A stretch of 64,000 nucleotides of DNA, taken from contig CM114271.1 in NCBI GenBank assembly GCA_050084515.1, forward strand, positions 31,062,001 to 31,126,000, read 5' to 3'. Position numbers and translations under genes: made by a program. The notes beneath the pieces were generated by a model. The model made no database searches and was not told where the DNA came from. It was given only the letters and a program-made list of their open reading frames with translations. Below, piece by piece: positions 9,613 through 64,000 of the stretch (within the stretch, counting starts at the first letter, position 1; each line of letters starts with the position of its first letter). The stretch is from Blasia pusilla (taxonomy: Eukaryota).

Positions 9613-9780
9613 GAGAGGTAGATGACTTGATCTTTGCATGATATGGAGGATGTGCGACTAACGATGGGGCAACCTAGCACCCGGCCTTCGATTTGCACCC
9701 AAGAAGGTGTATAGCATGTAGTAGATGTATAGGGCTACTTGGGAGTTAGAAGGACCTAACCGCCAGTTAGGGGGGCGAGT

Positions 9781-19779: not shown

Positions 19780-19820
<41 letters not shown>

Positions 19821-39362: not shown

Positions 39363-40311
39363 TGTCATACGCATACAGATTGCTACACAATATATATTGT
39401 TGTCACCGAATACACATACAAGATAGTATACTGACTCATGACATCGAGACGATTGAACACCAAAATATCTCCAATTAAATCAAAATCTCTCACAATGTCC
39501 TCACAAATCCATCTATCTCTCATTTCAAACCAAACTTATTTTCCTAATGAGAGCTTTGGGTTACTCACAAGGCAAGGAGAACCATAGTTCCGCCGCCTCA
39601 TGCCAAGAGGTTTAACAAAGAGACAGTGAGAACCAAAGTTCTTTTTCCTTGGGTATACCCCATGGTTACACAAAACCGGACAAGTCCTTCCTTAGGACAG
39701 ACGTGGATGGGTAAGTCCGGATATGTCCACAAACATGGATTCCAAGAGGTAGGACCCACACTTATAGTCCATGATGGAAGGCAAGGCAAGGATGAGTGGA
39801 GCAATGAGGGAGGAAGGAGTGGAGGTGGAAGGAGGAAGAAACGGTGGAGTATGGAACACGAAGGCAAGTAAGGGGAAGGAGAAAGAAGGGAAAGTTGAGG
39901 CCCATATGGACAAGTCCTTCCATAGGACGGACATAAGTCCACCGACATGGACATGTCCACGGATACAGACTTTGTCCACATGCGACCTTGGTATACCCCC
40001 TTCCATCTCCTAAGCTCTCTCCTTGGTAACCTATGCTTGCAAGTCACCTTCTTGGTTCTTGACTTGTTGTAGGGAGTCAAGGGCCACTTACAAAAGTAGA
40101 AATTCCACTCTACTCATAACGATAACTTGCTCAAAATAGTAATTTTCTTTATGGTAACCTATAGCTCCAATGAGCCGAAACGAAGGGGAAACTTGCTCTC
40201 TTAGGTTACTCGAGGCCGCAACAAGTTATCCTCAACCTCATGAGGATGTTCTCCAATATCTTTGAAGGTGCTCTATTATAAACTCATTTATGCATCCTAA
40301 AAGACGTAACA
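39363..40311 (-). mobile_element. Solo A-B unit with 4-bp TSD (TCTT)
   Basis: TCTT|TGTCATACGC...GACGTAACA|TCTT. It interrupts the RT sequence GAGGAGATCTTTGAT. The minus-strand 5' end is A-like and the 3' end is B-like. Confidence 0.85.
39661..39990 (+). mobile_element. hAT-type MITE with 8-bp TSD GTATACCC
   Basis: GTATACCC|CATGGTTACA...TGCGACCTTG|GTATACCC. Absent from the homologous A repeat near 18300. Confidence 0.85.
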
Positions 40312-40968
40312 TCTTTGATATGCTATGGAATACAAAGTACTTTAGATCTTTATGTTGGCTCTTATAATCTTCCTATAAAGGTGGTGGACATGGAGAAGAT
40401 AAAATTTTGGGGGACATATTGGTTTGGGAGAGATTTTTTATACTAGTGACGATTCTTACCATTTGAGTTGAAGAACATCTTGTAGAATTCTAGAGGGTTA
40501 TGGATAGGACTTTGGCTAGCTTGAAGGATGTACAATGTTACATATATAACATTATCATTTTCAGTTCTATGGTTGAAGAGGATAAGTTACACTTGGAGGA
40601 GGTGTTTTGATGATTGTTGTTAGTATATGGATTAAAGCTATATGGAGGCAAGTGTAGATTTTTGGAGGAGAAAATTGAGTACTTAGGACACACATATACC
40701 AATTTGCGTAATGTGTTCAATATGAGAAGGAAGATGCTATTGCACAAATCAGAGTTGAGTCCGAGCATTTTTAGGATTGGAAAACTTCTATTGACGGCAT
40801 GTCAAGGATTTTAGTGTGATTGCAAAGTTTCAATCTAATCTTGTTGATGAGACTTCATTGAGCATGGCATTGAGGAGAAGATTAGGAGTGAGCCTTTCAA
40901 GAGCTCAATGATAGGCTGATGTCCTCATCTATTCTACAAGAACCTATTTGGGTTATCCATTCTAGGTA

Positions 40969-41894
40969 CTTGTAAGGCACCCGTGCGATGCACGGAGAAA
41001 AAAAAGTTTGAAGAGTTTTTGTTAGTGAGGGGATTAATGATGTTGCACACAAATTCAAACTTTTTTCTTCTTGCCCATAACATGTGAAACATTTTTTCTT
41101 GTCCAATTACCACATGTCAATAGGGCCTCAAAAAAATGTGTCAATAATAGTTTTTTAAATTTTATTTAATTTCAAATTTAAGTATAATTTCTACTTTTTT
41201 AAATCTTAAAAGAGTATGAAAAATTCACCTTTAAATAACACCAATCTCCCATAAATAATTTCAATCCTCCGTAAAAGCTCAAACAATAACTCTTCTTCCC
41301 CTTCCACTCTTCCCACCAAAATAACATTCACTAACCAAAATCTTAGTTAATTTTAATTAACGAAATCATTTTCCTTTTCCATTCAAATTCATTTTCCTTT
41401 CCCAAAATATCATATGTGAATTAATACGATTATTTTTAAAAATTATCATGTTATTTGTTTCAAACTTTTAAATATGATTTCTATTTTATAAAATCTTAGA
41501 AGAGTAATAACATTTCACTATTCTTAGTAATTACAATCCTCCATTCAAATTTAAATGATATCCCAAAACTCGAAGTAATTTTATCTTTCCATAAAATTTA
41601 AACAAAATCTACTCCTCCATTAAATTATTATTATTTTTCCATCAAATATGAATTGAGGTAAAAATTCTAAAAATTTGGTTATTTATCATAATTATTACAT
41701 TTTTAAATATTTATAATCACCCATTATAATATTAAATTGAATATTAATTTATTAATATATGTTCGACTCAAATCCCTATTTTTTCTTTGTTTGATTGTTC
41801 CAAGGCAATAAAATTCAAGGATGTTGCCTATTTTGTCTTATTGTCCGATTATCTTGTCGTATTATGCATATGTGATCGCCAATTATTATATAGA
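40969..41894 (-). mobile_element. Non-autonomous Helitron (926 bp)
   Basis: The minus strand starts A|TCTATATAATAA and ends with hairpin CCGTGC-ATC-GCACGG, then CAAG|T. No TSD. Removing it restores the RNase H sequence (CCATTC.....A/TATAC..ATT.GAGCATGTTGGG). Confidence 0.8.
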
Positions 41895-43520
41895 TATACA
41901 AATTAGAGCATGTTGGGAGTAATTACTTAGAGAGATGACTAGTAGAGGGATTTTTTTGTGGCTTATGTCATTAGATAAAACAACATTGCATAGAAAATGC
42001 ACATCTCCTATAAGTGCATGGTTGTGATGTGGTCGGTAACACATTTAAGTTGCTATCTACTCGAAAAATCCTTTCACGCTCATCACTAATCATCAACCGG
42101 TGAGGTGGTTAATTGAATCTAACAAGGTTAGGGAATCTTATTGGATGGACTCTATTACTACAAGAGTGAAATTTCTAGGTGGTTCATAGGCTAGGTTGGC
42201 TTAAGCATGATACAGATGGATTAATTTGTAACTTGTGCCCAAGTTAGAGAGACAATACACGAGCTTAATGTCACGGAGAGAGTGACAAGAAGATGGTGCT
42301 TGGTTGGCACATATTTTCTGGGTGTTGGGGGATGGTAGAGTATGTGTGGTTCCTCATCCTTCCTAGCGAGCACGTATTGTACGATATATCCATGAGGAGT
42401 TGGGGAATTTGGAGTCAAGCATACTTACAACTTATTTTAAGTTCAATATTGGTGGTGTGAGCCATGTGCATGCATACCAAAGTTCAATAGTTTGTAGCCA
42501 AATATATGGTGTGTTATTGAGTGCAAGCATCCTTTAATGCTCCCACTCCATTATTACGTCCTTTGCCGATCATGAGATTAGGCTCTTGGTGGAGTTTGGA
42601 CTTCGCATAATCTTTTTCATTGATAAGGCCCTATCATAAGTACATGATGGTTGTGGTGGAAAATTTTTCCAAGTGGAGAGAGTTGGTGAGAGTACCAAAC
42701 AAGGCAAGCAAGGGATTGCGTACTTATTTAGAATGGTGCACCGGTGTAGGCCCTGACTCACTAGGGTACCAAGTTTTAGGTCTTCATATATCACCATACC
42801 ACCTTTAGTGATTATCTTGAGGCGAATGGGTTGGTGAAGCAAGTGATACAGATGGTGAAGACAATAAAGAGGAGTATGTAAGTATGGCTTGTAGTGGGAC
42901 TATTTGTGGGAGTGAGACCTATAGTTTCTATGGTTGTCTATGGGATATTGCTTTAGGCAAAAGGCATCTTGCGCGTCATTTTTGCTAGAATTTTTGCTCT
43001 ATGAGAGCCAAATTTGGCTGCAACTATTTGGCTTGGTAGAGGTGTTGGATCTTGATAACTCGATATCATGGGTACGAGCATGTTCATAGAGGAAGGAGAA
43101 TTTTTATAGAGTTATGCATGGCATTTTAGAATTTAGCAATTACTAAGCATAAGGATACATTTAAGTATGCAATCATTTGTGGAGGAGTTTATGGTCAAGG
43201 GATTAGAAAGTCCCTTTCTAAAGATTATGTATATTTACAACAGACGACATCTGTGACCCTAAATGTTACTACAAGAATTATAATTTTGTGTGTGTATGAG
43301 GTGTTACCTATTGGAATCCTCATGTTGGAGGGACAAGATGCATGGTATGTTTTGGAAGGATCATATTATGCAAAACTATGTGCCATGCCATCTTTCGAGT
43401 GAGGACAAGAGAATTGATTTGAGCTTGACAATGGTAACAATGGGCTTGAGATGTATGTTGTGTGGATTTGCAAGGAATGCAACCACTATGTTGGTGTGTG
43501 ATGGTTATTCTAAAGGGTCA

Positions 43521-44856
43521 TGTATGAATACCCTCTCTTGAAACGGTTTCCATGGGACGATGATTATATCCCAGATGAAATCGACATTTGAGAGAGTATA
43601 TACATCTGAGGATCTACTCTCTCGAACGTTGATTTCATGCAATGCGGAAGCTTGCGTTCAGTACATCACACTCACACTACTGACTTGCACCCAAATAGAC
43701 TTAAATAAGTCTCGTTTTGAGTCCATCAACCTTACATCTTCTTGAGTTCCTAACTCAGGCTATCCATCAAGCTCAAAAGTTACTAACCCCTCACTTCCCA
43801 ACACAAGAAAGTCTTTCTAGGCTTGGGAAAAAAAATCCCAGATAGTCCATGCAAGGCACCTAAAACAACGCTCATGCGGTTTCAACTATCCACAGAACCT
43901 CAAATGAGTCTCTAACCAAGACCCAAGATATGAGTCACGGATGGAGATCCACGGTTGACATCCATAATTCGCTCTCTTGGACTTGGCTTTGGGGTGTTTT
44001 GGGATCCACACCCTGAAGCCAACCTTCCAATCCATTCCATACCCTTGGTTTGTCTTGTGGCTTCCCAAAGTAGAGCTCACCTTCCAAGCATCCTTGGAGA
44101 CCCTCCCCTTTATATATAGTTCTAGAGATCTCCACTCCTCCCCAACTTTGGGAAATTCCTCTTCAATTTGCATATCATTCCTCCCACTTGCATCCTTCCT
44201 ATGGAAGGACTTGTCCATATGGGCTCCACCTTCCTCTTCTTTCTCATTCCTCCCACTTGCATTTCTGTTCCATACTCCCTCGTTTCTTCCTCCCTCCACC
44301 TCCACTTTCATCATCCTTGTTGCTCCAGTTGCCCTTGACCTGCCTTCCATCATGAACTGTAAGTGTGGATCCCATCTCTTGCAATCCAAGTTTTTGGACA
44401 TGTCCAAAATTTTTCCTCCATGTCCATCATAGGGAGAGACTTGTCCGTTTTTGAGCAACCGTCTTGGGCCGCTCGTTTAATTTGGCCCTTAACGAAAAAC
44501 TATAATTCTGATAGTTTAGGGATAACTCCTCAATCTTTGCTTATGCCTAGCTTTGTCTACATCCTTAGTGCATCGGAATCATCTTTACATAAGCTTTCCA
44601 ATGCCATCTTATGCATCCCAAAATCACCCTGGGTGTAATCGTTATGATCTTAAACACAACAAAACCTCAAACGCTAGTAAAGTTCCAAATCTTGTTCTAA
44701 CCCCCCTTGGCAACCCACTCTTATTAGACTTGAATTCTTCTCTAGTCTTGCTTCACATCTGGTTTTGGTTTATTGGGTCATGACCATCATCACTTGAAAC
44801 GCCCAATCTTGCTCGCGTCTCATACCTCGTGTCTCATTCAAGAGACGTTTCATACA
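43521..44856. mobile_element. TG...CA element with an imperfect inverted terminus of about 20 bp (solo LTR or MITE), containing a hAT-MITE fragment
   Basis: TGTATGAATACCCTCTCTTGAA ... TTCAAGAGACGTTTCATACA. It interrupts the PHD region. About 44170-44460 matches the MITE at 39661 in reverse. No TSD seen. Confidence 0.55.
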
Positions 44857-45789
44857 CGAATCCATTCTAGTACGAGCCTACTATAGTTCTGATATTCTGC
44901 ATTGGCGTATGTTTGGCTATGAGGGTTGCAAAAATTTAGGTAGCTAGTTGATAATGTCAAGTTAATATGATATGTGCTATTTGGAGTTAAGGGAACCAAT
45001 TTCCAATTAAGGGGACGATTGTGTGATCTTGGTATATATACATGAGTGTATATATTTTTGTATATGAACAGATCTAATCAGGAGATGGAAAGATGTGATT
45101 AACAATGTAGATTGTTTAGCAATGTGTATGGGTATGATCGTTTCACATCATAGTTAGATGAAATGTAGAGTTCTACTCTGTCAATGATGTAGAGAGTTAA
45201 GGGATTTTTCGAGCTTAACTTAATTGTGAAGAGTCAGATGAGATTGGAAACCACTCTGTAGCATCGGGGTTGTAGTTTTAGAAAACCTTCTATTTTGCTA
45301 TTTTGATATTTTGGGCTAAGAAACCTATTGATTGAGTCAATTATTATTTAGTAACTTGTGTGGGTCGAGGTGTGGGTAGGTTGCCATTTTTGATTATTTT
45401 TGGGGGAAGAGCTCTTTTAACTCTTCTCAAGGGCACAAAGGTGAGAGGGATGAGTGACTTTCACAAGCTATCTTTCTCATATATATTGAGCGTTTGTAGT
45501 GCTCATCTAGTTAGGGTTTTGTAGGAGGTTGAGCACTAAAGTTAAAGTTCCCTTATGCAATAGGCCTAATGTGGATATGATATTCATGTGTAGTTTCAAG
45601 GCTAAAATTTGATGTATGAACCATTTTCACTTCACTTTTGTTTTGTGGTCTTGGTATGCATGAGTGAATTTTTTTTTTGTATGGATCTACTTGTGTGTTG
45701 GGAAGATCAATCATGATGTTTGTTGTGTAGATGTGACCAATGATGTGAATTTTTTAGCAACGTGTATATGCATGATAATAGATGTCTAA

Positions 45790-47140
45790 AAAAAATGGGA
45801 GTTGGAGTGAGATATATGCACGCTTTACCCCAAACTTCCCCAACTCCTTAAGGGCATGTTACACCAATCCTACTCTATGCAAAGGATGAAAGGATGAGGC
45901 GTCACTTGCACTCAACCATCCTCCCACACTCACAAAATATTTGTCTCCTCCCACTTGAGTTATATAGCTTGTTATAGGATTTGATTAGGCTCGTTGGCAC
46001 TAGCCCTACGCATTAGGAACATAGCTTGCAACCCGCTATGCTACTAGCTAGTGCATAAGTACTCCAAGACTACCCCATCCTTGGGGATATCTCGACCATT
46101 TTTTACCTCATTACCAGCCATTGGATCTAGGGACTCTCCATCAATTGAGTATGATCAGCGTTCTATTGGTCTCTCTGAACCAACTCATATGTCTCCCCTC
46201 TTGATCAATACTCGTTAGTATTCAAAATTATGCTAAGCACTAAGTTGTATGGATGCCATCTCTTGGTGTACTTGCATCACATGCCAAGAAGTCTCTCTTG
46301 ATTAGCTCTAATCTCTAGGTCTCCACTCACAGTGCCCTTACCTCGTGCATGTACTTTCTTTGTAGGGATCGATGAGGCTCACTAGTGCCTTGGAGGTAAT
46401 ACAACTCACTCACATCTAATGATTGACGTTCTCAACCATCCCTAGAATATTTATCTTGTCACATAATTTAGGTGCATTGCATGACCAAGTACATGTTATT
46501 GAGATGCCTCTATCTTTTTGTATGTGGGAAATTCCATTGTCCACTCTTGGTCATTAGCCTTGGGCTCCACCAATTTCTATCCGTGATCATCCTAACTTAA
46601 GCCAAGGCCACCCTCCTTACAAGCATAAGAGGTGGGAAAACTCATAATTGTGGGGAGTGTAAGTCACTAAGGGTTGATCATTGTACCTTAATGCCTGCAA
46701 CCAACGTCCCACATCCAAAATCAAATCCATAAATTTTTTTTAGGGATGATCTACTTAATTATTCCCTCCTCAATACCTCATGTGCCATCAAGTTTGTCCA
46801 CGAGAGTCATGAACAATGTGCACGCAATTCTACACTCGATGCATCCAACAACCTTGCCATTCAAATCCATGCACAAACATAGTGTACACTCTTCATCATA
46901 GGTGATTTAGATTCACCCAAAAAAGAGAAATTGTAAATAATGCATGGTGGAGAATGATGTCGAAACATTTGCACCATCTCTTAAAACAATTTGGACCTAG
47001 AGTCTCCTAAGCCAATAATTTGTCCAACACAAGATTGACCATGACATGGCCAACCTCCAATAGATCAACAAATGAATGTTTCCTATCTAATCTAATTCCT
47101 ATGCCCCAACATTGAGATGTCCCTCGATACAACACGAGGC
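45790..47140 (-). pseudogene. Highly decayed third DNMT-bearing Gypsy-like fragment (DNMT plus integrase piece)
   Basis: The minus strand reads GGWPCHGQS, LLDASSVELRAH..LSWTNL, LPTIMSFPTSYA..EGG, LVEPKANDQE.TMEF, and near 45850 HALKELGKFGVKR. Confidence 0.7.
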
Positions 47141-47242
47141 TTAGTTGAGGCAATGATGATTATGATAGCCCATAAAAACATACAGTGCATGGGCTCCTCT
47201 CGAACATCAACAATAGGTTTCGACGCACTTGTTCCTCCCATT

Positions 47243-49497
47243 TATCGTGCGCATACACATTGCTACACAACACACATCGCTGGTCACATCCACACCACAC
47301 AACACCGATCTTCCCCACACACGGGTAGATCCATACATCTACAAAAATCAACTCATACATATACATCGAGATCACACAACAAAAATAAGAGTAGTAAACA
47401 ACGGCACATCCAGCCTAAAACTCCATTCCTCAATCTACATTGGCATATTGAGCCTTGTCCACCCTATGCTCTCAGGAAATCCAGACGCTAGCACCGTGGT
47501 CCTATCTCACACACAACAAGAGAGGTGCTTCAACGGCCCAACATTAGAAAGATGGCTTTCCCAAGCCATCTTCCTCCCTTATATAGGGTTGGAAAGATCC
47601 AAAAGGCTCTTCCCCTAAAAATAGCTATCCTCCTTGTAACCTACGCCCATAGGTTACCAGGGGCGGGTGACTTGCTCAACATGTGACCCGGCTGTGAAAG
47701 ACCTCAATAGGAAAGTTGGCAGAAATGACATTCTTGACACAACAGACCTATCCTCAACCTCTTCCGACACCTAGGGACAAAGTTACACTCAAGATAGTTT
47801 GTTGGCTCCTATGCCCTATCCACCATAGATCTCGGCCTATCGACTACTTAGATGTGACAGCTGTCGTGCGCATACACATTGCTACACAACATACATTGCT
47901 AGTCATATCCACACCACAAAATATCGATCGTCCCTACACACGGGTAGATCCACATATGTACAGAAATCAACTCATACATATACCTCGAGATCACACAACC
48001 GCCCCCCTAATTGGCAGTTGGATCCCTCTAACTCCAAATAGAAAATATCATATCTCCCTAACATGACCTACTATCCTACACACATCTTGGACATATCCAT
48101 TGTCCCATGGGAACTACATCAAGAGGGGGAAGGGATCAGACATGATATATGCCACCCTCGAGAATAACCATCACATACCAACATGGTGGCTGCATCCCTC
48201 CCAAATTCGCATAACATACACCTCAAGCCTGTAGGTACCATTGCCAAGCTCGGATCCACTGTCCCGTCCACATTCAAAAGGTGACATCGCGCACAGTTGC
48301 GCACATGATCCTTCCAAACCATACCATCCCGTCCCTCCAACATGAGGACTTCGGTCGGTAATACCTTGCGCACACGTAGGATCGTGCGCTATGGATCGTG
48401 CGCCATGCAGTGACATCTAGCATCGTTGGTGCCGCTTGCTATAAATACACGTAATCTCCATGATGAAACCTCCTAATCCCTCGACGATAACCTCCTCCAT
48501 GAATGGTCGCGTCCCTCAATGTATCCCTATGCTGAGCAATAGCTAAATTCTCAAAGGCCACGGGCATATATAGCTCTACAAAAAATCATCTCCGCCCTCT
48601 GAGAACATGCTTGTACCCACACATGGGGATCGTCAAGATCTAACACCTCCACCATGTCACGTTGAATAACTGCAGGTAAATATGGCTCTCTCCCAAAGAG
48701 CAAAAAGTATGGTGAAAATGACGCCAAGGATGCCTGCCGACTAAAGCGATAACCCATAGCCAACCATGGAAACTATAGGTCCCACTCCCTAAACTTTCCC
48801 TGCTGCAAACAATACTTGCGCAATCCTCTCTTCACCGTCTGTACTACTCTCTCCGCCAACCCATCTGCCTCACAATGATCTATGGATGTGGTGCGATGAT
48901 CTATGAGCGCTGATCATTCAAGGCCTGAAACTTCCCCCTGAACTCGGTACCTTGGTCAGTCAACACCTCCGCCGGTGCACCAAATTGACGAAGCACACGA
49001 TCTAGAAATGCATAAGTTGTTCCCTCGCTTGCCTTGTCCGGTAGTGCCACCAACTCTATGCACTTGGAGAAATGCTCCACCATGACCAACATGTATCTGT
49101 GTTGACGCCCCGTCAATGGCAAAGGTCCCGTGAAGTCTAAACTCCACCGATAACCTAAACCCATAATCGAAAAAGGATGTAATTGGGGAGTGGGAGCATT
49201 GAAGGATGCTCGCACTCGATCACATACCATACATCTGGCCACAAACTGATGTACCCCAATATGCATGCCGTGCCACCAATACTGAACTTGGAGTACGCTT
49301 TACTCCAAAATGCTCCAACTCCTCATGAGCATGTTGCACTACACGTGCTTGTTGAGAAGGATGAGGTACCACTTATATCCTACCATCTTCCCATATCCGC
49401 AAAATATGAGTCCCCTCCCACCTGAACCTCCTAGCTCTTTGTAGGATCCAATCCCCCTCTCTAACACTCATTGTGCTCGCTATGACGCCATAGGATA
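47243..49497 (-). mobile_element. 3' part of a Gypsy-like copy: IN-PHD-PPT-B1-GC-A2-B2
   Basis: Integrase/PHD ORFs at 48119-49497, PPT TTAGGGGGGCGG at 47999-48010, B1 47862-47997, spacer GC at 47860-47861, A2 47381-47859, B2 47243-47378. Confidence 0.9.
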
Positions 49498-49857
49498 AAT
49501 GGTTAGAGATTTTGCCTGCAGCTCTTCCAACTCCCGTTTCCCTTCCAACTCTCTCCATTTTGAAGATAGACTCCGAGATTTACCCTTTGATGTGAAGAGA
49601 AATATCTTCATGCGGGTTAGGCCGATCTCTTTATTTGAGAGGATTTCCAACTTACCATTAGCATGCAAATTGAAGATATGCGACTTTGCAAGCATGCATT
49701 TCTTGGAGTGACACTGGGCAGATCGCGCAGCTAGTTGGCAGTTCCATGCATGCACTAGACATCTTTACGTTAGATGGTTAGATTTTGTTATGGTGCATGA
49801 GGATTGCTACTCCATTCTTGCATGGTTGATGTTAGGGGTGGCTCGGATTATCAATAT

Positions 49858-50334
49858 TGTCACATCTGAGTAGCCGATAGGCCGAGATCTATCGTGGATA
49901 GGGCGTAGGAGCCAGCGGACTATCTTGAGTGTAACTTTGTCCCACGGTGTCGGATGAGGTTGAGGATATGTCCATTGTGTCAGGAACATTGTTTCTGACA
50001 ACTTTCATGTTGAGGTCTTTTACAGCCGGGTGACTTGTTGACCAGGTCACCCGCCCCTGGTAACCTGTGCGTGCAGGTTACCAAGGGGAGGGCTATTTTT
50101 AGGGAAAGAGCCTTTTGGCTCTTCCCAATCCTATATAAGAGAGGAAGATGGCTTTCCTAAGCCATCTTTCTCATGTTGGGTTGTTGCACCTCCCTTGTAT
50201 GTGTGTGAGCTAGGACTAGGGTGCTAGCGTCCGGATTCCTTGATAGCACAGGATGGACGAGACTCGATATGCCAATGTAGATTGAGGAGTGGAGTTTTAG
50301 GCCGGGTGTGCCATTTTTACTACTCTTTATTTTT
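49858..50334 (+). repeat. 5' terminal 'A1' repeat with TATA box and hairpins
   Basis: Matches the reverse complement of 47381-47859 along its length. TATATAA at 50132-50138. Confidence 0.88.
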
Positions 50335-51489
50335 ACATGAGAAAGATGTCAGGGGGCTGGTGGGAATTCGTTGTTTGCAGGTAGGCAAGCGAGTTGCCTT
50401 GGTCGGGCGCCCCAGGAGACGCGTGTGTTGCGGGTGTTTTTCATTTTTATGTTCGGAAGGCCGTGGGCGGAAGCGATGTCCGTTTTTCTCAGATTTTGCT
50501 GGTACGGATTGACGCGAGACAACAGCCGAGTGTAGTGTGTGGTGGAGCGACGGGTGTATGTGAGTGAGGGTGTCGAGAGAGAGAAGAAAAGAGAGCGACG
50601 GCGCGCATGGCGGACGGAGCAGCAGCGGCGGCGGGCGGCGGGCGGCGCGCCCCCTCCCCCTCCCCGCCTCTTCCCCCAAGGTGGGAGGCACGCATAGGAC
50701 CGTGCGCCCCCCCTCTCTCCTCTCTCCTTCCGCAGGCAGGCACGCAGGGAGGCCACGGGCCGGACGGCCCCCCCCCCCCTCCAACGTGGTAGGACGGAGT
50801 AGGGTCGATCGGTGTGCAGTTGTAGCGAACGTGGTAGGACGGACGAGGTCGGTCCGGTGAACGCGGTTGCGCATGGGCAACGTGATGGCAGGGAGGATGT
50901 CGATGTGGTGAGTGACTGACATAGTTGGACGGCGGGCGTGACATGATGTTTTGGGGCACGAGAGGACGTTGCGAGAGTTGACGATGGAGGGGCAGCGTGC
51001 ACGATGTTGACGGGTTGTCCGCATCTGTTGACGGGAGGATCGACGTGTTGGTCGAAGAGAGTGTTGTGTTGCGGAGGTTGTCATATCATGTAGAGGAGTG
51101 CATGTTGACGGTGCAGCAGGTTGGAGGGCGTGATTAGGTTATCCATTCAAGTTCCTTTTCCCGCACTTGTCGTGTGTGATTGAGAGTGCTAGGTATCGGG
51201 TAGTAGCTGGTGCTAGGTGGGTGCAGTGATGGTGACGAGTGTAGATTCTTTTCATGTATAGCATGTTGGTGGATATACGGCGGTTGCCGAGTAGGGGTCG
51301 CATGTATGACCTGAGAGAGTGTCGCTAGGTTAGGTGAGTCAGTTGGGAGGCTCATGGTGAGCCCAAGTGTTGAGCGTGCGTGAGGCCGGGTATGTCATCA
51401 CGGGATTGATGTTAGCATAGGTGAGCTAGTGAGGCGTGTGGGAGACTCTCGGTGAGTCTGAGTGCTTGAGCGGGTGAGACAGGGTTTGT

Positions 51490-54102
51490 CATCACGGCGT
51501 TCTTTCAGGGTTCGGAAGAACGGGGTAGTGAGAGTAGTAGTAGTGGTGTGACACGGAGCGGAGTGAGATACTGAGGGGTTACCAGTGAGGAGCTACCTCG
51601 ACATCCATCCGTGGCTGGATCGTCATCACTGGACACTGGGTCTGGTGACGAGATCACAGACAGAGACAATAGTACTTGGCAAGAGCTCGACGACATGGGC
51701 CACCGGGGCATGCGTCGTTTCTCGGATGCAGTGGGCACCATCCACTCAGATGATTTTATCTAGGAGTTCAAAAAATGGTGCGACTTCCAGGAGATACAGA
51801 CCCACCCCGACACGATTCAACCCTTTCATGGCATGGAAGGGGTTGTTCCAGCACTTGGAGGGTCCTCCGATGGATGACTATATAGAGTTTCGATCAATAT
51901 ATTCAGTAGAGATCGATGCCTGGAGGATGTATTGGGCTCCAGGGTATGTGTCCACTAGTGGTCGTGAGGCATATGATGGGATTGTGAGAGGAGAGAGACC
52001 CACACCATCAGCCCGGAGACTAGATGGAGAGGAGGGCAGTGAGACAGGCGATGTGGCAGAGACCTCTGGTGGTAGAGGGCCACCCAGCTTCAGCCCCACA
52101 GTGGAGTTCTTCCGAAAGTTGGGGAAGAGCTACCAGAGCATACGCACCGAGAAGCTGAAGAGTCTACAGGATTTTCAGTGACGATCGGGTGAGAGTCTGA
52201 GAGAGGCATTCACACGCATGAGGAGGCTGATCATTGCTACGTTTGGAGTGAATGAGGCGCAGTGAGTCCAGTATTGATACGCGGTTTTGGACCGAGAACT
52301 ACAGAGGAGAGTCCGAGATGCGGTGCTGATTCACACAGCGAAGCCCACATTGAAGGTGGTCTCTGAGCGTATTGAGCTCAACATGAGTGAGGAGTAGGTA
52401 GTGACCGCTGGATTTTCTCGAGAGTTGACAGGTCCACAAGCGACGGTGACCCCACAGGTGCCACAGCGAGCACTTGTACCACGGGAGCGGGCCAGTGTGC
52501 CTAGAGAGCAGGGCGGGTACCGTGAGCCTATGAGGCAACGACCCACACCTACATATGTTGCCCAGCAGGGACCGATGTGGTCTTGTTGGACGTGTGGAGG
52601 GGCCCACACATCCAACAAGACCATAGGCAGAGAGACTGCCCACAGCATGGGAGAGGACCACCAGCGCCTACGATTGCTCAGGGGCCATAGAGGATGGCCC
52701 CACCACAGTACCAATGTGACCATTGCCACAGATATGGTCACACTAGGGATAGATGTTTTGACCTTCGCCGGGGGCATGTCGAGGTAGGCCGAGGGCCTGG
52801 GGGGCGTCGTCTGGAGGAGGTCGGGGAGTTCTTCCTGGGGCGTGGTGGTAGAGGACCACCACCAGCCAGAGGAGATGGAGCACAAGCACGGAGCGGCACT
52901 TCTCTCACGCATCAATCGGTTGGAGCGGAGGATTGCTGCCATGCGATGATGCGGCTTAGGAATGCACGGAGCTCTGGCGACTAGTGTGACTCAACTTCTA
53001 CCTCTTACCCCGACCGGGTGAGGATCTCTTGATATGGGATTTATGTGTAGTGCAGCCCAGGTTGAGGTGCAATGGTGACTCGGGAGTCTTTGCGAGAGGC
53101 ACCGAGCCATGGAGAGGTGGAGTTGAGATTGACCCACCAGAGGGGACCGATGGGCGGCAGGCTAGGGTTCCACAGTCGTTCACATTATCGGAGGCACTAC
53201 ACACACCATCGATGGTGCCTCGACGACCAGCGGTGCCTACAATTCAGGCACCTACGTCGACGTCACGAGGAGTTGGAGTGACAACTCCTATGCCGGCTCG
53301 AGTGGAGTCAGTTTTGACCATATTGTTGGAGGTGGCCACCAGAGTGAGTCACACTCCACTATTTTCCGCCATAGAGTTGGCGACGTTGGGAGTTGGACCA
53401 GCTGAGGTTGGCCGCCACGTTGTGTGAGCGTGGAGAGATGACTGCTTCTTGTTCAGAGGTAGTTGAGGAGGTGGTGGACTTGCCCTCAGAGCCGGTGCTT
53501 GGGACGTTCCCCATAGAGTTATGGCATGCGGCGGCGGCGAAGTTGATAGATATGCTAGCTCGACCGACCATAGAGCGAGCAGTGGTGACACATGGAGTAG
53601 TGTTACTGGATAACCGAGCTGGAGTATTTCGCTTGGTTAGTCCGACGGGGACAGTATACCACCCGCAACGCGTCCTACTTGATTCGAGAGCGCAACCCTT
53701 GATGTTAGGGAAGGCGGCGTGTTAAGCGTTGGGGTTACGGAAGGCCGACATTGAGCCTTGTCCCATCCAGATACAGACCTCGATTGGGGGCGTATCACCC
53801 ACTCAGTATATGACTCGCAGAGATAGTTGTCGAGTCAGCGAGCATCGACGGATAGTGCTATGGTGCGCACACGTGCGATTACGACACCAGCTGAGTCATA
53901 CGATGTGTTGGTGGGGAGAATAGTGTTATATCCCCTAGGATTCATCCTTGACTTCTGGGAGGGGACCGTTGCTTATCGGCCAGGATGGCGGTCACGTGAC
54001 GGTCGGATGAGTCAGTTACTGGTGCAGTTTGCGAGACGAGGTGGTCGATCACGAGGCGAGTCTGTGACCACGTTGGCAGCTTTCACAGGTAGTGTTAGCT
54101 AG
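51490..54102 (+). pseudogene. Gag (two zinc knuckles) and protease of copy 2
   Basis: EKLKSLQDFQ, CWTCGGAH, CDHCHRYGHTRDRC and VLLDSRAQPLM. Confidence 0.82.
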
Positions 54103-54393
54103 CCAGGAGAGTTGTTGGAGGGGAACGCACATGCGGAGGATGTCCCAATAGCGGATAGTCCCACGGAGAGACAGGCCATGGCGGGTGTCTCTTCCCATGT
54201 TGGCGAGGCCTCTTCACCATTGTGGGGTACGACTTGGGAGCTACAGAGGAGTGCCGACGACCTCGTGAGGCAGGCGTGGAGTCATGTTTTTATCCTAGAG
54301 CAGCGAGAGTCACGTGGCGATCGAGCTCTTGGAGTGGAGACGTTGACCCCACTAGATACCACACCTCTTGTGTGGCACTGCCCAGAGGAGGGT

Positions 54394-55350
54394 GTTAGGG
54401 TGTTAGATCTCTTTGGAGGGATTAGCACCGGATTGGCTGCACTATTGCAAGCGGGCATACGGGTGCATCAGTACCTTTATGTGGAGAGAGATGAGACTGC
54501 GCGGCGAGTATCATTACGTCACGTGGCGAGATTGGTCCAGAGGTATCCTGAGTTGTTGTCGGTATCTCTGATGCAAGGGGATACCAAAGATACGCTACCC
54601 GCCGACATCTCTTTGGTGGGGGCGCAAGATCTGGATAGAGTTGGCACCATTCATTTGGTGATTGCTGGATGGCCATGTCAGGGTCATTCATCAACTGGCC
54701 GAGGATTTGGATTGCAGGATCTGAGGTCAAGGATGTTTTGGGAGATGTTGCGAGTATTACGACATTTGCAGGAGAGTCAGATATGTTCTCCAGCATACAT
54801 TTTGGAGAACGTGCCGTTGTTGGGAGACACTCGTGCACGTGTGATGACGAGTGTACATCAGGTGAGGTCTTGGTTGGGACCTGATGTGTTGTTAGATGCA
54901 GGGAGAGTTGGGTCACGTGCCCATCGTCCACGACTGTGGTGGACGAACCTCATACCATCAGAGGTATTGAGTCGAGCATACGGTGGAGTCCAGAGAGCAC
55001 CACATCTCACAATGGATGCTATTTTGGTCTCAGGGCGTCGATCTCAGGTGGTGACAGGTGGTGACACGGGATGATAGACCACCGTTGGCCATGGCCAATA
55101 GGGTGGGGGAGTTGAGGGCAGCCTTACCTACGTTGGTGAGCTTCCCATCATCCCATGCCTTTCGTCAGGGAGGGCCAGGCATGATTTGGGATGAGGTGAC
55201 CGGAGCATTGGAGGAACCTACAACAGATGAATGCGAGCGCGCCATGGGGTTCACTACCGGTACTCTGGCGGTGCCAGGGATGACTGAGGCATCACGGAGA
55301 GAGGTGTTGGGGTAGGCGATGGACCTCAACTGTCTCACATGGATAGTCAG
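54394..55350 (+). pseudogene. DNMT3-like C5 cytosine methyltransferase domain (copy 2)
   Basis: VLDLFGGISTG, YVERD, ADI, AGWPCQGHS, ILENVP, RAHRPRLWWTNL, ECERAMGF and VLG*AMDL. Confidence 0.93.
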
Positions 55351-55759
55351 CCTAGGTATGGCTGAGCAGAGACGGATGCGAGTGTCATCCATGCCGTCAC
55401 GTCCACGAGTTGGACCATTGCCTACAGGGTTTGTACAGGCATTGGATGGGGGCGAGACGAGGAGAGATAGGCACCCATGGACTTCCTGGGACGTCGTTCG
55501 AGCAGAGAGTGCGAAGGCGGCTAGAGTAGCACATGTTCATTTTTCGGATGTGGAGCATGGTGTAGGAGGTCAGAGTGGAGTGGCTGTTGCGGAGATGGCT
55601 AGGGTTGCTACATAGCAACCAAAGCCGGAGGTTGCGTCCTCTTCGAGTGAGGTCACGATGGAGACTTGGGAGCCTGTGATAGGTCTCAAGTTGATAGGAG
55701 GAGAGTGATGGCGAGTTCATAGGTTTCTGAGAGGGCATGTCAGTTGTTTTTCCTTCAGT

Positions 55760-58124
55760 ATGAGAGACTTGGGTACGCTGAAGGGTCCCGGGATACGGAT
55801 TGAGTTGGCTAGTGATACGCCGATCTTTCGTCGACCCTACAGGTATTCTGATATGGAACAAGCCTTGATTCAGAGCAGGAGTCAGGACTTGTGGAGTTAT
55901 CACATGAGGAGTATGCATCTGCCACAGTCATGCAGGCGAAGAAGGATATGTATGGCAATTGGACGGATAGGCGGATGGGTGGAGATTACCGTCCTATCAA
56001 CCGACAAACGAGGTCAGATCGGTACACCATGCCTACTCCTGAGGAGATCTTTGATGCGGTAGGGCAGGCAAAGATCTTCAGTACTTTAGATCTCCATGCT
56101 GGCTATCATCAACTTCCTATCAGGTTGGAGGACAGGGAGAAGACAACATTCTAGGGGATAGATCGGTTCGGGAGAGATTGCTTGTATCAGTGGCGGTTCT
56201 TACCATTTGGGTTGAAGAACGCACCTGTAGAGTTTCAGAGAGTGATGGATAGGATTATGGCTGGCTTGGATTTTGTACGATGTTACATAGATGATATTCT
56301 TATCTTCAGGTCCACGATTGAGGAGCATGAGCGACACTTGGAGGAGGTGTTTCGGCGATTGCAGTTACATGGACTGAAGTTACATCCATGCAAGTGCAGA
56401 TTCTTTCAGGAGCAGATTGAGTACTTGGCACACACCATATACCCGAGTGGGTTAGGCGTTCAGCAGACGAAGGTAGAGGCTATTGCGCAGATTCCACGCC
56501 CTACAGATGTGAGTCGAGTCCGAGCATTTCTTGGAATGGCAAACTTCTATCGACGGTATGTCAAGGGTTTTAGTGCGATCGCAAAGTCTTTGACCTTGTT
56601 GACGAGACTTGATCAGGTGTGGTTGTGGGGAGATGATTAGGAGCGAGCATTTCAGGAGCTCAAGGACAGGTTGACGTCTTCACCCATTTTATAGAGACCG
56701 GTTAGGGGTCGCCCATTCCGATTACATACGGATTGGAGCATGTTGGGTCTAGGAGCAGTGCTTACTCACAGGGATGACGAGGAGAGGGAGTTCATTGTGG
56801 CTTATGCGAGCCGATCAAACAACATTGCAGAGGCGAAGTACAGCTCCTACAAGGGAGAGTGCTTGGTTGCAGTGTGGGCCGTGGCACATTTTAGGTGCTA
56901 TTTATTCGGCAATCCTTTCACACTTATCACTGATCATCAGCCGTTGAGGTGGTTGATGGAGTCCGACAAGCTTAGGGGAAAGCTTGCCAGGTGGGCTCTA
57001 TTACTACAAGAGTATGAGTTTGAGGTGGTTCATAGGCAAGGTCGGCTGAACCAGGATGCGGATGGATTGAGTTGTAACCCATGTCCGAGTCAGAGAGACG
57101 ACACAGGAGCTCGATGGCACGGAGAGAGTGATGAGGAGATGGTGCCGGGTTGGCATGCATCTACCTATCTTTGTTGGTTGACTATAGCATGTCAACCACA
57201 GGTGATGACTCCTGTGGTGGGGTTGGATGATGAGTCTTTGGATCCGGAGGTTAGTGAGGAGGCGACAGGTGGTCGTGATATCCATGACGACGTGGAGGTT
57301 GTGGAGTTCTTGCCCACTGGCGTCATTGCGAGTATAGTGAGTGCTAGGGAGCGGAATCGGATCCTACAGAGAGCCAAGAGGTTCAGGTGGGAGGGGACTC
57401 ACATTTTGCGGGTATGGGGAGATGGTAGGATACGAGTGGTACCTCATCCTTCCCAGCGAGCACGTGTAGTGCGACATGCCCATGAGGAGTTGGGACATTT
57501 CGGAGTAAAGCGTTTTACTTACTCCAGGTTGATATTGGTGGCGCGGCATGCATAGTGGGGTACAATGTTTGTGGCGGATGTATGGTATGTGACAGAGTGC
57601 GAGCATTCTTCAATGCTCCCACTCCGCAGTTACATCCTTTGCCGATTATGGGTTTAGGTTATCGGTAGAGTTTAGACTTTGCGGGACCTTTGCCATTAAC
57701 AGGGCGTCATCATAGGTACGTGTTGGTCATGGTGGAGCATTTCTCCAAGTGGATATAGTTGGTGGCACTACCAGACAAGGAGAGCGAGGGAACAGCTTAT
57801 GCGTTTCTAGATCGTGTGCTTAGCCACTTTGGTGCATCGACGAAGGTGTTGATTGACCAGGGTACCGAGTTCAGGGGAGAGTTTCACGCCTTGTGTGATC
57901 AGGCGCTGATAGATCACCGCACCACGTCCAGAGATCATCTTGAGGCGGATGGGTTGGCGGAGAGAGTGGTACAGACGGTGAAGAGAGGATTGCGCAAGTA
58001 TGGCTTGTTGCGGGGACAGTTGAGGGAGTGGGACCTACAGTTGCCATGGTTGGCTATGGGTTATCGCTTTAGTCGGCAGGCATCCTTGGCATCATTTTCA
58101 CCGTACTTTTTGCTCTTTGGGAGA
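55760..58124 (+). pseudogene. RT, RNase H and integrase of copy 2
   Basis: DYRPIN, LDLHAGYHQ, LPFGLKNAP, YIDDILI, TDHQPL, HEELGHFG, DQGTEF and DGLAERVVQTVK. Confidence 0.93.
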
Positions 58125-58126
58125 GT

Positions 58127-58262
58127 TGTGTGATCTCCATGTATATGGATGAGTTGATTTTTGTACATGTGTGGATCGACCCGTGTGTGGGGAAGATCGG
58201 TGTTGTGTGGTGTAGATGTGACGAGCGATGTATGTTGTGTAGCGATATGTATGCGCACAACA
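58127..58262 (+). repeat. 3' terminal 'B' repeat of copy 2 (136 bp)
   Basis: Highly similar to the reverse complements of 47862-47997 and 47243-47378. Confidence 0.9.
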
Positions 58263-58747
58263 ATATTCATCTTTGTCATGATCATCAAGGTTTTTTGGTT
58301 GGTGAGGACCACTTTCCTCATGTGAGGAAAGTTGTGTTGATGGTATGGGAGGCTATTTCCTTCTCTAGATCTCAACCATCTGTGTAGCTTCGCTTTGAAT
58401 ACTGTGATTTTCCAGTGGGTTTATTTATGCCACATAGGATTTGTGGAGGACTAGCCAACCCTAAAGAACGTTTGAGAGGCATATTTTGCCTATGTTGCGG
58501 AGGTGTGTGTTGTGGACCTGTATGGTGGCGACAGGGCTGGCATTAGGATTTGCTCGAGAGATGACTCTAGGAGGCCTAATTTTGCATGCATGTAGACAAT
58601 GAGTTTGAGTGGATTTTGATTTCAATTGCTCAACAATTTTAGGATGATGGGAGACTTGTGGATGTGTAAGTTTTTCTGTCTCCCTGTATGGTTTATGCAT
58701 ATTGTATGGATGATGGCTGACATTTTCTTTTCCCATTTCCATGTGTT

Positions 58748-61700
58748 GTGACAGATTTAATGATAAAAACTACCATCAATATGTCCCATAAGATTAAGCT
58801 AGTGTTACTTCCAATAATAGGGGTTGACAGAACTCAGCCCCTAATGATTTATGCCTTCAAGGATGGAGACACATCAGAGACTATGAGGGATAAAGTAACA
58901 AAGTCTAAAAAGTGGAGAGATGTGAATTTCAACTTTTGGGACAAAAGAATACCTGGGGTTTTGGATAAGGATATGGAGGACTGTTACATATTAGAAGACA
59001 TGGGGGATGAAGTACATGTCATTGACGATTAAACTAACAGGGTTCTGGTCAATGGTGACATTGAGGACTCTAGGCGTAAGAAGAGGACATACAATACATG
59101 GGACTCTAATTTAATGATGGAGGAGTCCATTCATGTAGAGGACTCTATGGCTGCCAGTTCTAGAGGATCTAACACTGCTCCTTCAAGCTCTAGTGGGCCT
59201 AGTGGGCTAGGGGGGGAGGGGGACCTAGTGCAATCCATGTTGATATAGGACAACTAACTAATGAACAAGTGGTAGATGTTGTTGAAGTTAAAGGAACTTG
59301 GACTTCAACACTGATGAAACCCTTTTATACATTCTATTGGAAGAGCAAAACAAGAGGGCTCGATAGTTTAATGAAGGATTTGAAATTAGACCATCATAGG
59401 TGGTCTGTTCGTACCTTTGACAAGCATGGGGAACCTCAAGGCAGATTTATTTGTGAGGAATGTGTTGAGGAGTATGGTACTGCTGATGGGTCAGAGGATA
59501 AGAAGTGTATAGAGAATACCTTCAATAATTGGAGAAAGCATATACTGACAGTTCAACATGAGAGACGGTGGGCTGAGAGGAATAATTGTCTAGTCACAAA
59601 AAAACCAAGTTTCAAATGAGGGGCCTCAGCCTCTTGAGCCTAGATTAGTAGTGGAGGATGGACTTCTTATCATGCAGGAAGTAAACCAGAACTGTGGTCT
59701 CCTTAAATCTCCATATATGCATTGGAGTGGAGACCTTAATGTAGAGCTTGTTGTAGCTTTTAAGTTCAAAGCTCAATGTGTATAGTGTAAAGAGACCATT
59801 CACTTGGCCCCTGCTCATAGAAACCTGAAGACAAACTTGGAGCAACACTTGACTAGTAAGTATCACTTGCGAGGTGTAGAAATAAGCCAGGCTAATGCGA
59901 GGGCACCTTTGAGGACTGGGTCGGTAGGATGACCTCTAAAAACAGTTGACAGGGATACTAGACCCAACAATGCCCTTGACAAGTGGTTGATCAAGACTTC
60001 AAGACAAGGTGGATCTCAACGTGAAGGGGATGGCTCAGGTGGGCCTTCTCACAATGAAAACCTAGATGATTTGACATTATCTCAATTATGTTGGGGGTAT
60101 TGGAGAGATACAGTAGAGTACAAAGGCATTCATAAAGAGGTGAAGGCATTGTTACATGACCAGAAGGGTGGAAAGACCTGGGAAGCAGATGGTAGGGTTA
60201 GAAAGAGGGTTTTTAACCCTACTTCTTTGTCTTGGGTTGACATTAGAGGATTATTCCGATCTATTCATTGTCTATATGTTTCAAGACTAGGAGGTGGTTT
60301 CAAGCACTTGACTTGTGATGAGTGCTTCAACCTGACAAAGGAGGGGGATTTCAGGATGAGAGTTGCTAGGGAAGACAAGACTGGTACTCAACGAGGGACA
60401 AGGTCAAGGCTGATGCGCATAAGGCTGGACTATCTTACAAAGTCTGAACTTCGAATGCAAGCTCGAACTTATGCTGAAGAGAGGAGGTCATTACATTTAC
60501 TGAATTTCAGTTTGAGAATGAGGGTATGTGCACTTGGAACAAAGAAACACAAACTAGATGTCCTACTAGACCAAGCAGCTGGTAGGAAGGATTTGTTCGG
60601 ATTCCTTCGGAATATCATAGAAGCCCATAAGAGTCAAGCATTTGGAGGACGTGAAGCTTTATGGGATTTTCTACAAGATATGGGAAAAAACCTAAATAGG
60701 AAGGAGAGAGGATGTAGGTATTCTCAAAGAACTAAAGCTATACCTTAGGCTTTACTAAAGTTTGGTGGAAGACCTGTAGCCCATTGTTTTGCATTGAACC
60801 TCATGGGTCCAAGCTTGAAGACACCGAAAAGAGCAAGAACTAAATTTTCCACCTTCAGATACGGCATTCAACCTGAGATTTTTGCTGAAGTGGGAAGGAT
60901 ATTGAATGCAAAAAAATATGATCGAATATTATTGGGGATATCCCCGTGATATTTGCTGAAAATGAAACCAGAGTTAAAAGTCGAGTGAGGTAAATTTGAA
61001 TTAAGTGCTATTGAATTTCTTTGTATATTTCTTGTTTTAGCATGCATGGGACATTTTCACGATGCTTAACTTACAGAATTGATTTGGCTACTCCTTGATT
61101 GTGGCAGGTGGGACTCCAAGTGGGACACTCTGGTGGGGTTTTGTGGCCCAATTGAAGATCACATATGTTCAATGGGATTAGAAGTCTTAGTCGGGGAGGG
61201 TGACGAGGGTTATGAGAAGATTATGTCAACTTTTGAGAGTCAGCGGATTGGTATATATGGTAGTGTTATTATCGTGAATCCTTTGCATGAAAATTTGCCT
61301 AAACTAGTTATTTGTGCTACTTGCACATGTAATAGCTTTACCTCACACTGGGTAAGAAAGCAATGGGAAGAGATGAAAAAAATGTGGGATATACATAGTA
61401 GGGCAAAAGTAGGCCCTGTATTAGGTCATGCCTCCGACGATGATGCACGGAGACGAAAGCTTATGCTAGAGGATTATATGGGCAGAGGTTCATATGGAGG
61501 GCTATGCCGTATACAGTTGGATTGGGAAGCATGGGGGTTCACTGTCCATGAATTCCCTAATGGGGATCGTGGGGGGGGTTAGGTGATCAAGATCCTCCCC
61601 ATTGTGGGAAGAAATTGTTGAATCCGCTGGATCGAGCAAACCACCCGATAAAGTTAGGTCCTTACATTGCTTCGTTGGAACATGTACAGAAGGTTTTTCA

Positions 61701-62303
61701 TCTCTATCCCCACAAGAAACACAAGCTCAATTATGATGATACAACTAGGAGGGATAGAAAAAATTGGGGTTCTGGCCAAAGGGTTGCTAGCAGGGACGTG
61801 CAAGCTTGTTTGTATGACTTGCAAACAAGAAGGGATGAAGCACAAGAGAGGACCTTGGGAACTATTGTGTATCTCCCCATATGTGGAGATTACATAGATG
61901 TTTTTTATTCCCACAATTTTGTGAAGCATGATTTGTGGACAAGGATCATGCTTTGCTCTAAAATCACTTCATTCCTACGGTTATGGAGGTTGTGGTTGAA
62001 ATTACGCACTGATATATATAGTGAGAAGAATATGATTAGTATACAACCATTCCATGATGGGCATTGTCATGTCATTTTGCTATTCAACTAATTTGTCTTT
62101 TTCAAGATAAATATCCATTGGTCCCTGTCCCTCTTCATCTAACAGGGTCTGATTGTTTTGAGATATTCTTTTCCAAAGTTGGAGGGATGGCAGGTCATGT
62201 TGCAAGTGCTAACATGTCCCTCTTCATCTAACAGGGTCTGATTGTTGTGAGATATTCTTTTCCAAAGTTGGAGGGATGGCGGGTCATGTTGCAAGTGCCA
62301 ATC
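58748..62303 (+). pseudogene. P-element/THAP9-like DDE transposase relic with N-terminal zinc fingers and one intron
   Basis: AENETRV (first D region), GHASDDD, DQDPPHCGKKLLN (DxxH..K..N), RDRKN and GSDCFEIFFS. Zinc-finger-like CEEC...KHILTVQH. A GT-AG intron at 60990-61107 splices in-frame to SRVRWD. Confidence 0.6.
62126..62303 (+). repeat. Tandem duplication, 89-bp period
   Basis: TGTCCCTCTTCATCTAACAGGGTCTGATTG...GTTGCAAGTGC at 62126 and 62215. Confidence 0.9.
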
Positions 62304-63553: not shown

Positions 63554-63910
63554 CTAAAGCTGAGGTTCACGAACCCATTGTTGGTGGTCACTGGTATTGA
63601 AGCCATATACTTGCGGCTTTCCATTTATATATCCTTCTTCGCCTCCAAGTTTGTCGGCTGGCCCCTGACTTCTCTTCATATACCAGGCGATCCAGGTGAA
63701 GATTTCAAGAATCAGAGCCACAACTGCAATGGTGCACAGAATTACAATGTAAGCAGTCTTCCAACCTTTGGCCGGTTGAAGAATGTCGATTCCCTCGAAG
63801 ACGTTGACTATGCTAATAATGATGAGCGCAAATCCGCACGAGTGGTGGTACACGTTCCAGTACTTTCGCAACTTGTGCTCCTTATTTGGTCTCAACGCTA
63901 GCGCCGTGAT
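63554..63910 (-). CDS. Final exon of a cytochrome b561 (CYBDOM/ferric-reductase type) gene
   Basis: LRPNKEHKLRKYWNVYHHSCG...IVNVFEGIDIL..WKTAY. Splice acceptor TTTTCAG at 63911-63917. Upstream exons lie outside the window. Confidence 0.88.
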   Translation of the reverse strand: MTALALRPNKEHKLRKYWNVYHHSCGFALIIISIVNVFEGIDILQPAKGWKTAYIVILCTIAVVALILEIFTWIAWYMKRSQGPADKLGGEEGYINGKPQVYGFNTSDHQQWVREPQL

Positions 63911-64000
63911 CTGAAAATAGATAGCACAAGATTGTGAGCGTCACGCATCTCATCTCCATCACGTTTTCGTTATTGACAGAACTTGCTCTCCTCAAATCCC

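Follow-up and report, generated by a model that had tools for sequence, protein, structure and literature searches.

A 64,000-nt stretch of Blasia pusilla DNA (assembly GCA_050084515.1, contig CM114271.1, positions 31,062,001 to 31,126,000, forward strand; the whole of it is called the window, and positions are counted from its first letter) contains several damaged copies of a Gypsy-like retroelement that lacks a pair of ordinary long terminal repeats (LTRs) and carries split direct repeats, termed A and B. Copy 2 (49858-58262, + strand) starts with the 477-bp repeat A1 (49858-50334), which begins TGTCA and has a TATA box at 50132, and closes with the 136-bp repeat B (58127-58262), which finishes in CAACA. 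Its TG...CA ends lie within an exact 4-bp target-site duplication (TSD), ATAT, at 49854-49857 and 58263-58266 (junctions ATAT/TG at 49854-49859 and CA/ATAT at 58261-58266). These ends had been described in an earlier note on this DNA, and the coordinates hold. A and B are unrelated, the sole match between them being 24 nt (E 0.026). The ATAT flanks are also compatible with a 2-bp duplication, and a 4-mer match is expected by chance at about 0.005.

The interior of copy 2, all on the + strand, follows A1 with an untranslated region (UTR) and then shows gag with CCHC knuckles and a protease (PR) region (51700-53900; stops and frameshifts throughout), a C5 cytosine DNA methyltransferase (DNMT; 54370-55370) with LFGG, PCQ and ENV motifs, a frameshift near 55070 and a PF00145 match (E 9e-9), reverse transcriptase (RT) with YIDD plus RNase H (RH; 55885-57100; RVT_1 1.7e-29, RT_RNaseH 3e-32; in-frame stops), and an integrase (IN) zinc finger and DDE core (57400-58125; rve 1.3e-11). 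The Pfam matches on this strand are DNA_methylase, RVT_1, RT_RNaseH, RT_RNaseH_2 and rve; the minus strand of copy 2 gave no Pfam match, and no tyrosine recombinase was matched by Pfam in its six frames. The integrase has the spacing D, D, 34 residues, E by our own count, and the Integrase_H2C2 finger was matched. The order is PR-RT-RH-IN with the DNMT between protease and RT, a feature that the earlier note had not mentioned. Copy 2 has neither a polypurine tract (PPT) nor a PHD finger. It is a deletion product, because its integrase stops at 58125 and meets B directly, where the sequence of copy 3 runs on into a PHD finger. Coding DNA abuts the exact first bases of B independently in copy 2 (58106-58140) and in a related metagenome locus, L009 (7280-7320), and both joints pass through a short purine run like the end of a PPT; a jump at plus-strand start may account for them.

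Copy 3, on the minus strand, retains the other end of the element. Its 5'-truncated coding remnant (48070-49490; integrase and PHD finger, the latter at E 1e-3, under the curated cut-off) leads to a PPT (47998-48010) directly before B1 (47997-47862), followed by GC, A2 (47859-47381; 85% identical to A1 of copy 2) and B2 (47378-47243). The B1/A2 junction (47856-47865) is the palindrome GACA-GC-TGTC, which holds both integrase ends and a 2-nt spacer. Copy 4 (39002-45777, + strand) consists of old, interrupted RT-RH-IN-PHD pieces and a decayed PPT-B1-A2-B2 at 45007-45777, which aligns end to end with copy 3 at 59%. Thus both places where the earlier note had seen PPT-B1-spacer-A2-B2 (47243-48010 and 45007-45777) are upheld, and the third, minus-strand PPT-B1-A2 that it had reported was found as well, in decayed form, in copy 5 (36380-37667; IN/PHD remnant, PPT, B1, a GT spacer and A2).

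Copy 1 (701-9884, + strand) has a 5'-truncated A1, gag-PR-DNMT, RT-RH-IN-PHD, a PPT and B (9780-9884). It had been given as a further copy without an LTR pair, and the order A-ORFs-PPT-B (ORF, open reading frame) can indeed be read; on its left side, a deletion joint is more likely than a true element end. The A of copy 1 aligns to a related full A from position 131 onward only, and its flanks, on a reading of the sequence, are non-adjacent parts of a Copia ORF. Copy 1 was therefore rejected as an intact insertion, and no TSD is readable for it. The Copia-type element around it (1-700 and 9885-11520; family assigned by reading) has a 190-bp tandem duplication at 105-456.

A solo A-B unit of another subfamily, not mentioned in the earlier note, lies at 39363-40311 on the minus strand, has TG...CA ends and a TSD of TCTT, and holds a later insertion. 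Compared with the homologous site in the RT of copy 2, TCTT is in register, and the length of the TSD is thereby fixed at 4 bp. The subfamily of the solo unit and copy 5 has two further decayed members, A or A-B units, at 18190-18640 (minus strand) and about 19500-20136 (+ strand), neither with a readable TSD. An old fragment of the family (45794-47175, minus strand; DNMT and integrase pieces) stands directly beside the B2 end of copy 3 and, together with the solo unit within copy 4, suggests that the family nests in itself. A repeat of about 220-270 bp is present in three copies, 77-81% alike (36854-37072, 39664-39938 and 44186-44460), two of them inserted in A repeats of the family.

There is no full-length copy within the window itself. 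The complete layout comes from related metagenome loci, taken to be plant DNA, of which the best 80 of 330 confirmed were analysed; L023, L041, L049, L056, L066 and L077 were omitted from the counts as duplicates of one locus. Six loci carry the whole A1-ORFs-PPT-B1-A2-B2 in one contig, which bears out the association of Gypsy RT and DDE integrase with an A1-ORF-B1-A2-B2 layout that had been pieced together from separate copies in the window. In five of the six, TG...CA ends lie inside one 4-bp TSD (AAGG, CATA, GGTC, CCAA and TTTT, the last in a run of T), and a short form, L036, has TACA. When copy 2 and the solo unit are included, a 4-bp TSD flanks 8 of the 10 elements in which both ends are present, and the chance expectation for each is about 0.007 (0.005-0.009). 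A 2-bp TSD was rejected; seven elements fit 4 bp, and five of these fit 4 bp only. The full form is A1-UTR-gag-PR-DNMT / RT-RH-IN-PHD-PPT-B1-GC-A2-B2, about 9-10 kb long, with TGTCA...GACA ends and a 4-bp TSD.

How regular is this layout? Downstream of PPT-B, 14 of 22 copies have exactly 2 nt and then A (GC in 6, AC in 4, GT in 3 and TC in 1), and the other 8 have host DNA; L040 (B1 fused to A2), L076 (B end interrupted) and L009 (no PPT) were omitted here. None of 24 A1 copies has B in front of it (L030, copy 1 of the window and L014 omitted). Accordingly, an LTR made of B+A at both ends was rejected, as was one made of A+B, since no A1 in the aligned loci has B following. An ordinary two-LTR Gypsy element, with ends rearranged after insertion or with small A-B units inserted beside B, might be proposed as the source of such structures: every copy in the window is damaged, coding DNA runs directly into B in both copy 2 and L009, and L014 reads B-A-UTR. 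Against it stand the single TSDs around five of the six full layouts, the recurrence of the layout in families whose A and B sequences are unrelated, the likeness of A2 to its own A1 (nearest neighbours in 11 of 14 elements), and a spacer that is constantly 2 nt, unlike the 4-bp TSD. This explanation is largely refuted, and we regard it as highly improbable.

The enzymes are those of a Gypsy element. In the related locus L014 they are encoded in two ORFs, gag-PR-DNMT and RT-RH-IN-PHD, with one stop between; the best PDB match is Ty3 Gag-Pol (E 4e-98), and Asp_protease_2 is matched at E 2e-4, under the curated cut-off. No minus-strand ORF of at least 200 aa is present in L014, L043 or L044. The family has a PHD finger, not a chromodomain, at the end of its integrase. 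Named homologues of the DNMT region are from Marchantia, Calypogeia and Sphagnum (43-69% identity), and for the RT ORF there are further ones from Riccia, Closterium and Klebsormidium nitens. A K. nitens polyprotein, P0121, has DNMT-RT-RH-IN in the same order, and the DNMT of copy 2 is 42% identical to it over 151 aa. In an RT-RH tree of 114 rows (quick search, midpoint root, no bootstrap, no named reference elements, 14 short rows omitted), copy 2 clusters with liverwort elements (98), and this cluster falls within a 92-row group that includes K. nitens and Closterium (Shimodaira-Hasegawa-like approximate likelihood ratio test, SH-aLRT, 92); chromodomain-bearing and animal matches lie outside the group.

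Methyltransferase content varies among relatives. In two related RT-IN-PHD polyproteins, P0023 and P0029, a DNMT lies between RNase H and integrase, not before RT, which may represent a second position or a second capture. Another, P0170, has PF05869, which we take to be a Dam-type adenine methylase family, in place of the C5 methyltransferase. In Marchantia, ORFs of the family are annotated as hypothetical genes, and P0061-P0063 and P0066 carry Mp_Vg identifiers, which presumably denote the male V chromosome. The role of the DNMT in these elements is probably methylation of new cDNA, as proposed for DNMT-bearing elements in PMC5890265.

The family very probably represents the streptophyte Gypsy-DNMT3 lineage, whose type element is KnitGypsy-Dnmt3, in a liverwort. 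The earlier note knew of no description of Gypsy enzymes with split repeats. That novelty does not stand, as Gypsy domains, a DNMT and 'DIRS' repeats are given together for KnitGypsy-Dnmt3 of K. nitens (PMC5890265, de Mendoza et al. 2018, Fig. 4c legend), of which P0121 is presumably a copy. The two share a C5 DNMT within a Gypsy polyprotein and DIRS-like repeats, those of K. nitens being known from the legend only; they differ in that the host here is a land plant and that gag-PR-DNMT and RT-RH-IN-PHD are here two ORFs split by a stop, as seen in L014. In the text of PMC5890265 the DNMT capture is treated as something acquired within the K. nitens lineage, and the inactivity of the DNMT in yeast is called inconclusive. 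That text holds no TSD, junction, PPT or priming data for KnitGypsy-Dnmt3; the figure image and supplements were outside the comparison. A 2026 preprint (10.64898/2026.05.21.726589) has 'streptophytes (Gypsy-DNMT3)' in passing, and PMC12344493 refers to DNMT3 within streptophyte retrotransposons; the wider range may therefore already be known to those authors. No description of bryophyte members, TSDs or priming was found in the literature searched, with Repbase, subscription journals, book chapters and supplements outside the search. The range over liverworts, Sphagnum and Closterium, the self-priming pair described below, the GACA-GC-TGTC palindrome and the TSDs were thus not found in print.

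On sequence evidence, the repeat borders are fixed by three putative signals: a PPT, a self-priming pair and a palindrome. The PPT is G-rich and lies directly before the start of B1. There is no tRNA primer site of the TGG type after A1, as the earlier note had said; a self-complementary site is found there instead. In copy 2 the predicted self-primer (50163-50176, + strand), 31 nt past the TATA box and coinciding with the predicted RNA 5' end, pairs exactly over 14 nt with a putative primer-binding site (50335-50348, + strand), its reverse complement, directly 3' of A1. The pair is 15 nt in copy 1 (primer 819-833, binding site 995-1009, + strand). A perfect reverse complement, 10 nt or longer, occurs in 12 of 24 copies versus 1 of 720 controls (L003, L030 and L014 omitted), and of the 8 pairs for which a TATA box was scored, 6 sit 31-34 nt after it. 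The paired sequence differs in each of three families, and a fourth, found afterwards (L014), has a pair of 16 nt. A putative Tf1-like self-priming pair is thus the explanation for the missing tRNA site. Tf1/Sushi and Tcn1 elements carry two ordinary LTRs. These chromoviruses resemble the liverwort family in carrying a self-priming site with which the RNA 5' end can pair (PMC4600332 for the Tf1 arrangement; PMC6317226, where Tcn1 and TAR represent self-priming in plants); unlike it, they have a chromodomain, where the liverwort family has a PHD finger and a DNMT.

The third signal arises at B1/A2, where TGTCA and GACA, the outer ends, come together as GACA-GC-TGTC, so that the integrase ends are 2 nt apart. 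The spacer is always 2 nt (14 of 14 copies), and AC and GT spacers are presumably the expected C-to-T decay of GC on either strand. Abutted ends with a 2-3 nt spacer are also cut by the DDE enzymes of IS3/IS30 in copy-out-paste-in transposition, a DNA-only process with no reverse transcription; the liverwort family shares the abutted ends and short spacer and differs in that it reverse-transcribes. Ginger DNA transposons have a Gypsy-like integrase, no RT and terminal inverted repeats, unlike the present family, in which RT and RNase H are present. Foamy virus integrase cuts a palindromic LTR-LTR junction after CA on both strands, leaving a 2-nt 5' overhang (Delelis et al. 2005, PMC1180852). 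The foamy virus palindrome is formed from joined cDNA ends, whereas that of the liverwort family is built into the element and transcribed with it.

DNA contigs and raw RNA runs with the same species label were compared with the window. The element is high-copy, with a summed contig depth of mostly 10^3-10^5 versus about 6 on the host flank, and where contigs end at B, the flanks are unrelated to one another (agreement 0.37-0.38 among 27 and 49 contigs). The B-GC-A junction is spanned by 18 contigs and by 40 and 71 RNA reads, from related copies. The RNA is mostly sense, provided that the library has the usual orientation. Most reads are less than 95% alike to the window (588 of 637 and 678 of 713) and therefore come from copies other than those in the window. 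As possible marks of transcript start or end, there were only two pile-ups, of 5 molecules.

How might such an element replicate? The favoured reading, to which we assign a probability of roughly 0.6, is self-primed LTR-type reverse transcription, joining of cDNA ends and integrase cleavage of the internal palindrome. In standard LTR reverse transcription, the PPT and the primer site set the LTR borders. Because the PPT is directly before B1 and the putative primer site directly after A1, the LTR would be B-GC-A, and its outer ends would be without conserved TG/CA; the integrated ends would lie inside it, because the B1/A2 palindrome is internal to that LTR. RNA would begin in A1, some 30 nt downstream of the TATA box, its 5' end would pair with the site directly after A1 and prime the minus strand as in Tf1, and the plus strand would begin at the PPT before B1. 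The A end would then be joined to the start of B to form the A2/B2 junction, a counterpart of the 2-LTR circle junction, and integrase would cut each strand of the CA-GC-TG palindrome within the LTR just after CA and insert these ends. The joining and internal cleavage are suggested by the comparable junction that foamy virus integrase cuts. A cut at the 5' B/A would yield the full form, and the short form (A-ORF-PPT-B) and solo A-B units might come from other site pairs or later recombination. The replication of the DIRS/PAT type that the earlier note had proposed is probably wrong, as the PPT before B1 and the self-priming site after A1 point to the LTR type. Canonical LTR features (TG...CA, a 4-6 bp TSD, a PPT and a putative primer site) are kept, without two identical end LTRs. 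At the level of the lineage, the chances look about even that this is an old green-plant Gypsy group (K. nitens, Closterium, liverworts, Sphagnum) in which the integrase sites moved from the cDNA ends to an LTR-internal palindrome, with insertion always via end joining and internal DDE cleavage.

A variant accepts self-primed LTR-type copying and has the TG/CA ends made by RNase H, primer sites or a host nuclease, with integrase merely trimming and inserting them. All the priming evidence fits it equally well. It seems improbable, since the B1/A2 junction contains no purine tract or primer site and is a conserved palindrome, with a 2-nt spacer in every case and the geometry cut by foamy virus integrase.

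Several observations weigh against the favoured reading. A symmetric 2-LTR circle predicts A-B-A-ORF-B, which is seen in 0 of 24 copies, so that an extra asymmetry must be assumed, e.g. a plus strand that runs on past the A end into B. When the B repeats were compared, the two belonging to the same element proved to be nearest neighbours in no more than 2 of 8 and 4 of 12 cases, and fixed B1/B2 differences were not found; copying of B2 from B1 in every cycle is therefore unsupported by that comparison. Half of the copies (12 of 24) fall under the 10-nt threshold for the self-priming pair, the best match in L019 and L037 falls at a second site, whose distance from the TATA box is 88-117 nt, and the whole 201-nt fold, in which 50163-50176 is paired, reaches a z of only -1.45. 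The full layout L069 is without a TSD, and the TSD of L009 has one mismatch. Twenty RNA reads extend beyond the B end into varied flanks, and thus not every RNA ends in A2. The steps from RNA start to cleavage are inferred, and the short and solo forms might equally result from recombination. The grouping with K. nitens is supported at 92 only, in a quick search without bootstrap. Lastly, L014 at 8554-9317 reads PPT-B-GT-A followed by a primer site and UTR-like DNA. This is likely a collapsed assembly; it may also be a tandem, or a true B+A LTR or one-LTR form. L014 is the one exception to the absence of B before A1 that, with the TSDs around full copies, speaks for split repeats as the earlier note had read them.

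A PAT- or Ngaro-like mode with a swapped enzyme can be built on the PAT replication model: RNA would run from A1 to B2, the split repeats would guide jumps into a circle, and a DDE integrase would replace the tyrosine recombinase at one new B/A junction. The A1-B1-A2-B2 layout is identical to the split direct repeats of PAT, TOC1, Kangaroo and Ngaro (PMC4157794). The absence of the permuted form needs no further assumption here, some RNA reads cover B and extend beyond its end, and the B1/B2 comparisons leave the copying mode undecided. Left unexplained are the ending of A exactly at the self-priming site in four families and the start of B exactly at the PPT. The RT is similar to that of Ty3 (the RT-RH tree contained no DIRS reference), and no tyrosine recombinase was matched in copy 2. 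Unlike PAT, TOC1, Kangaroo and Ngaro, the liverwort family has a DDE integrase, a protease, a PPT, TG...CA ends and a 4-bp TSD, and its methyltransferase is of the C5 type, whereas that of DIRS elements is usually a Dam-like adenine methylase (PMC5890265). This explanation is doubtful, yet it is the strongest competitor of self-primed copying with internal cleavage.

The remainder of the window is a mixture of host genes and other repeats. The flanks of copy 2 (49491-49853 and 58267-62100) are its low-copy target, with broken ORFs, and possibly represent a DNA transposon; 59933-60745 within it gave no Pfam match. An unbroken hexokinase frame of 545 codons lies at 22432-24069 on the minus strand (72% identity to Marchantia, 62-63% to Riccia); by this similarity a complex thalloid liverwort is the probable host. 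A probable membrane protein of the host, presumably cytochrome b561/DOMON-like, has its last exon at 63554-63940 on the same strand. A decayed PIF1-like helicase of the Helitron type was recognised by eye at 12000-13400 (+ strand). The element at 24968-28754, with inverted repeats of about 200-280 bp (24968-25252 versus 28754-28418) around an RT-like interior, looks DIRS1-like by eye.

What does the family mean for genome annotation and for integration? As a high-copy, transcribed family with no LTR pair, it should be missed by LTR-pair finders, and its ORFs, when annotated as genes, can inflate counts of bryophyte DNA methyltransferases. Whether LTR-LTR junctions are true integration precursors of retroviral-type integrases is an old dispute. 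For foamy virus, a junction precursor is argued for in PMC1180852. The family offers a direct test of junction cleavage by a DDE integrase, because the two integrase ends adjoin only at the internal palindrome. If the favoured reading is true, this would be a natural retroelement that integrates solely through junction cleavage, and its split repeats would have arisen convergently from an ordinary self-primed LTR, which suggests a simple route from LTR to split repeats.

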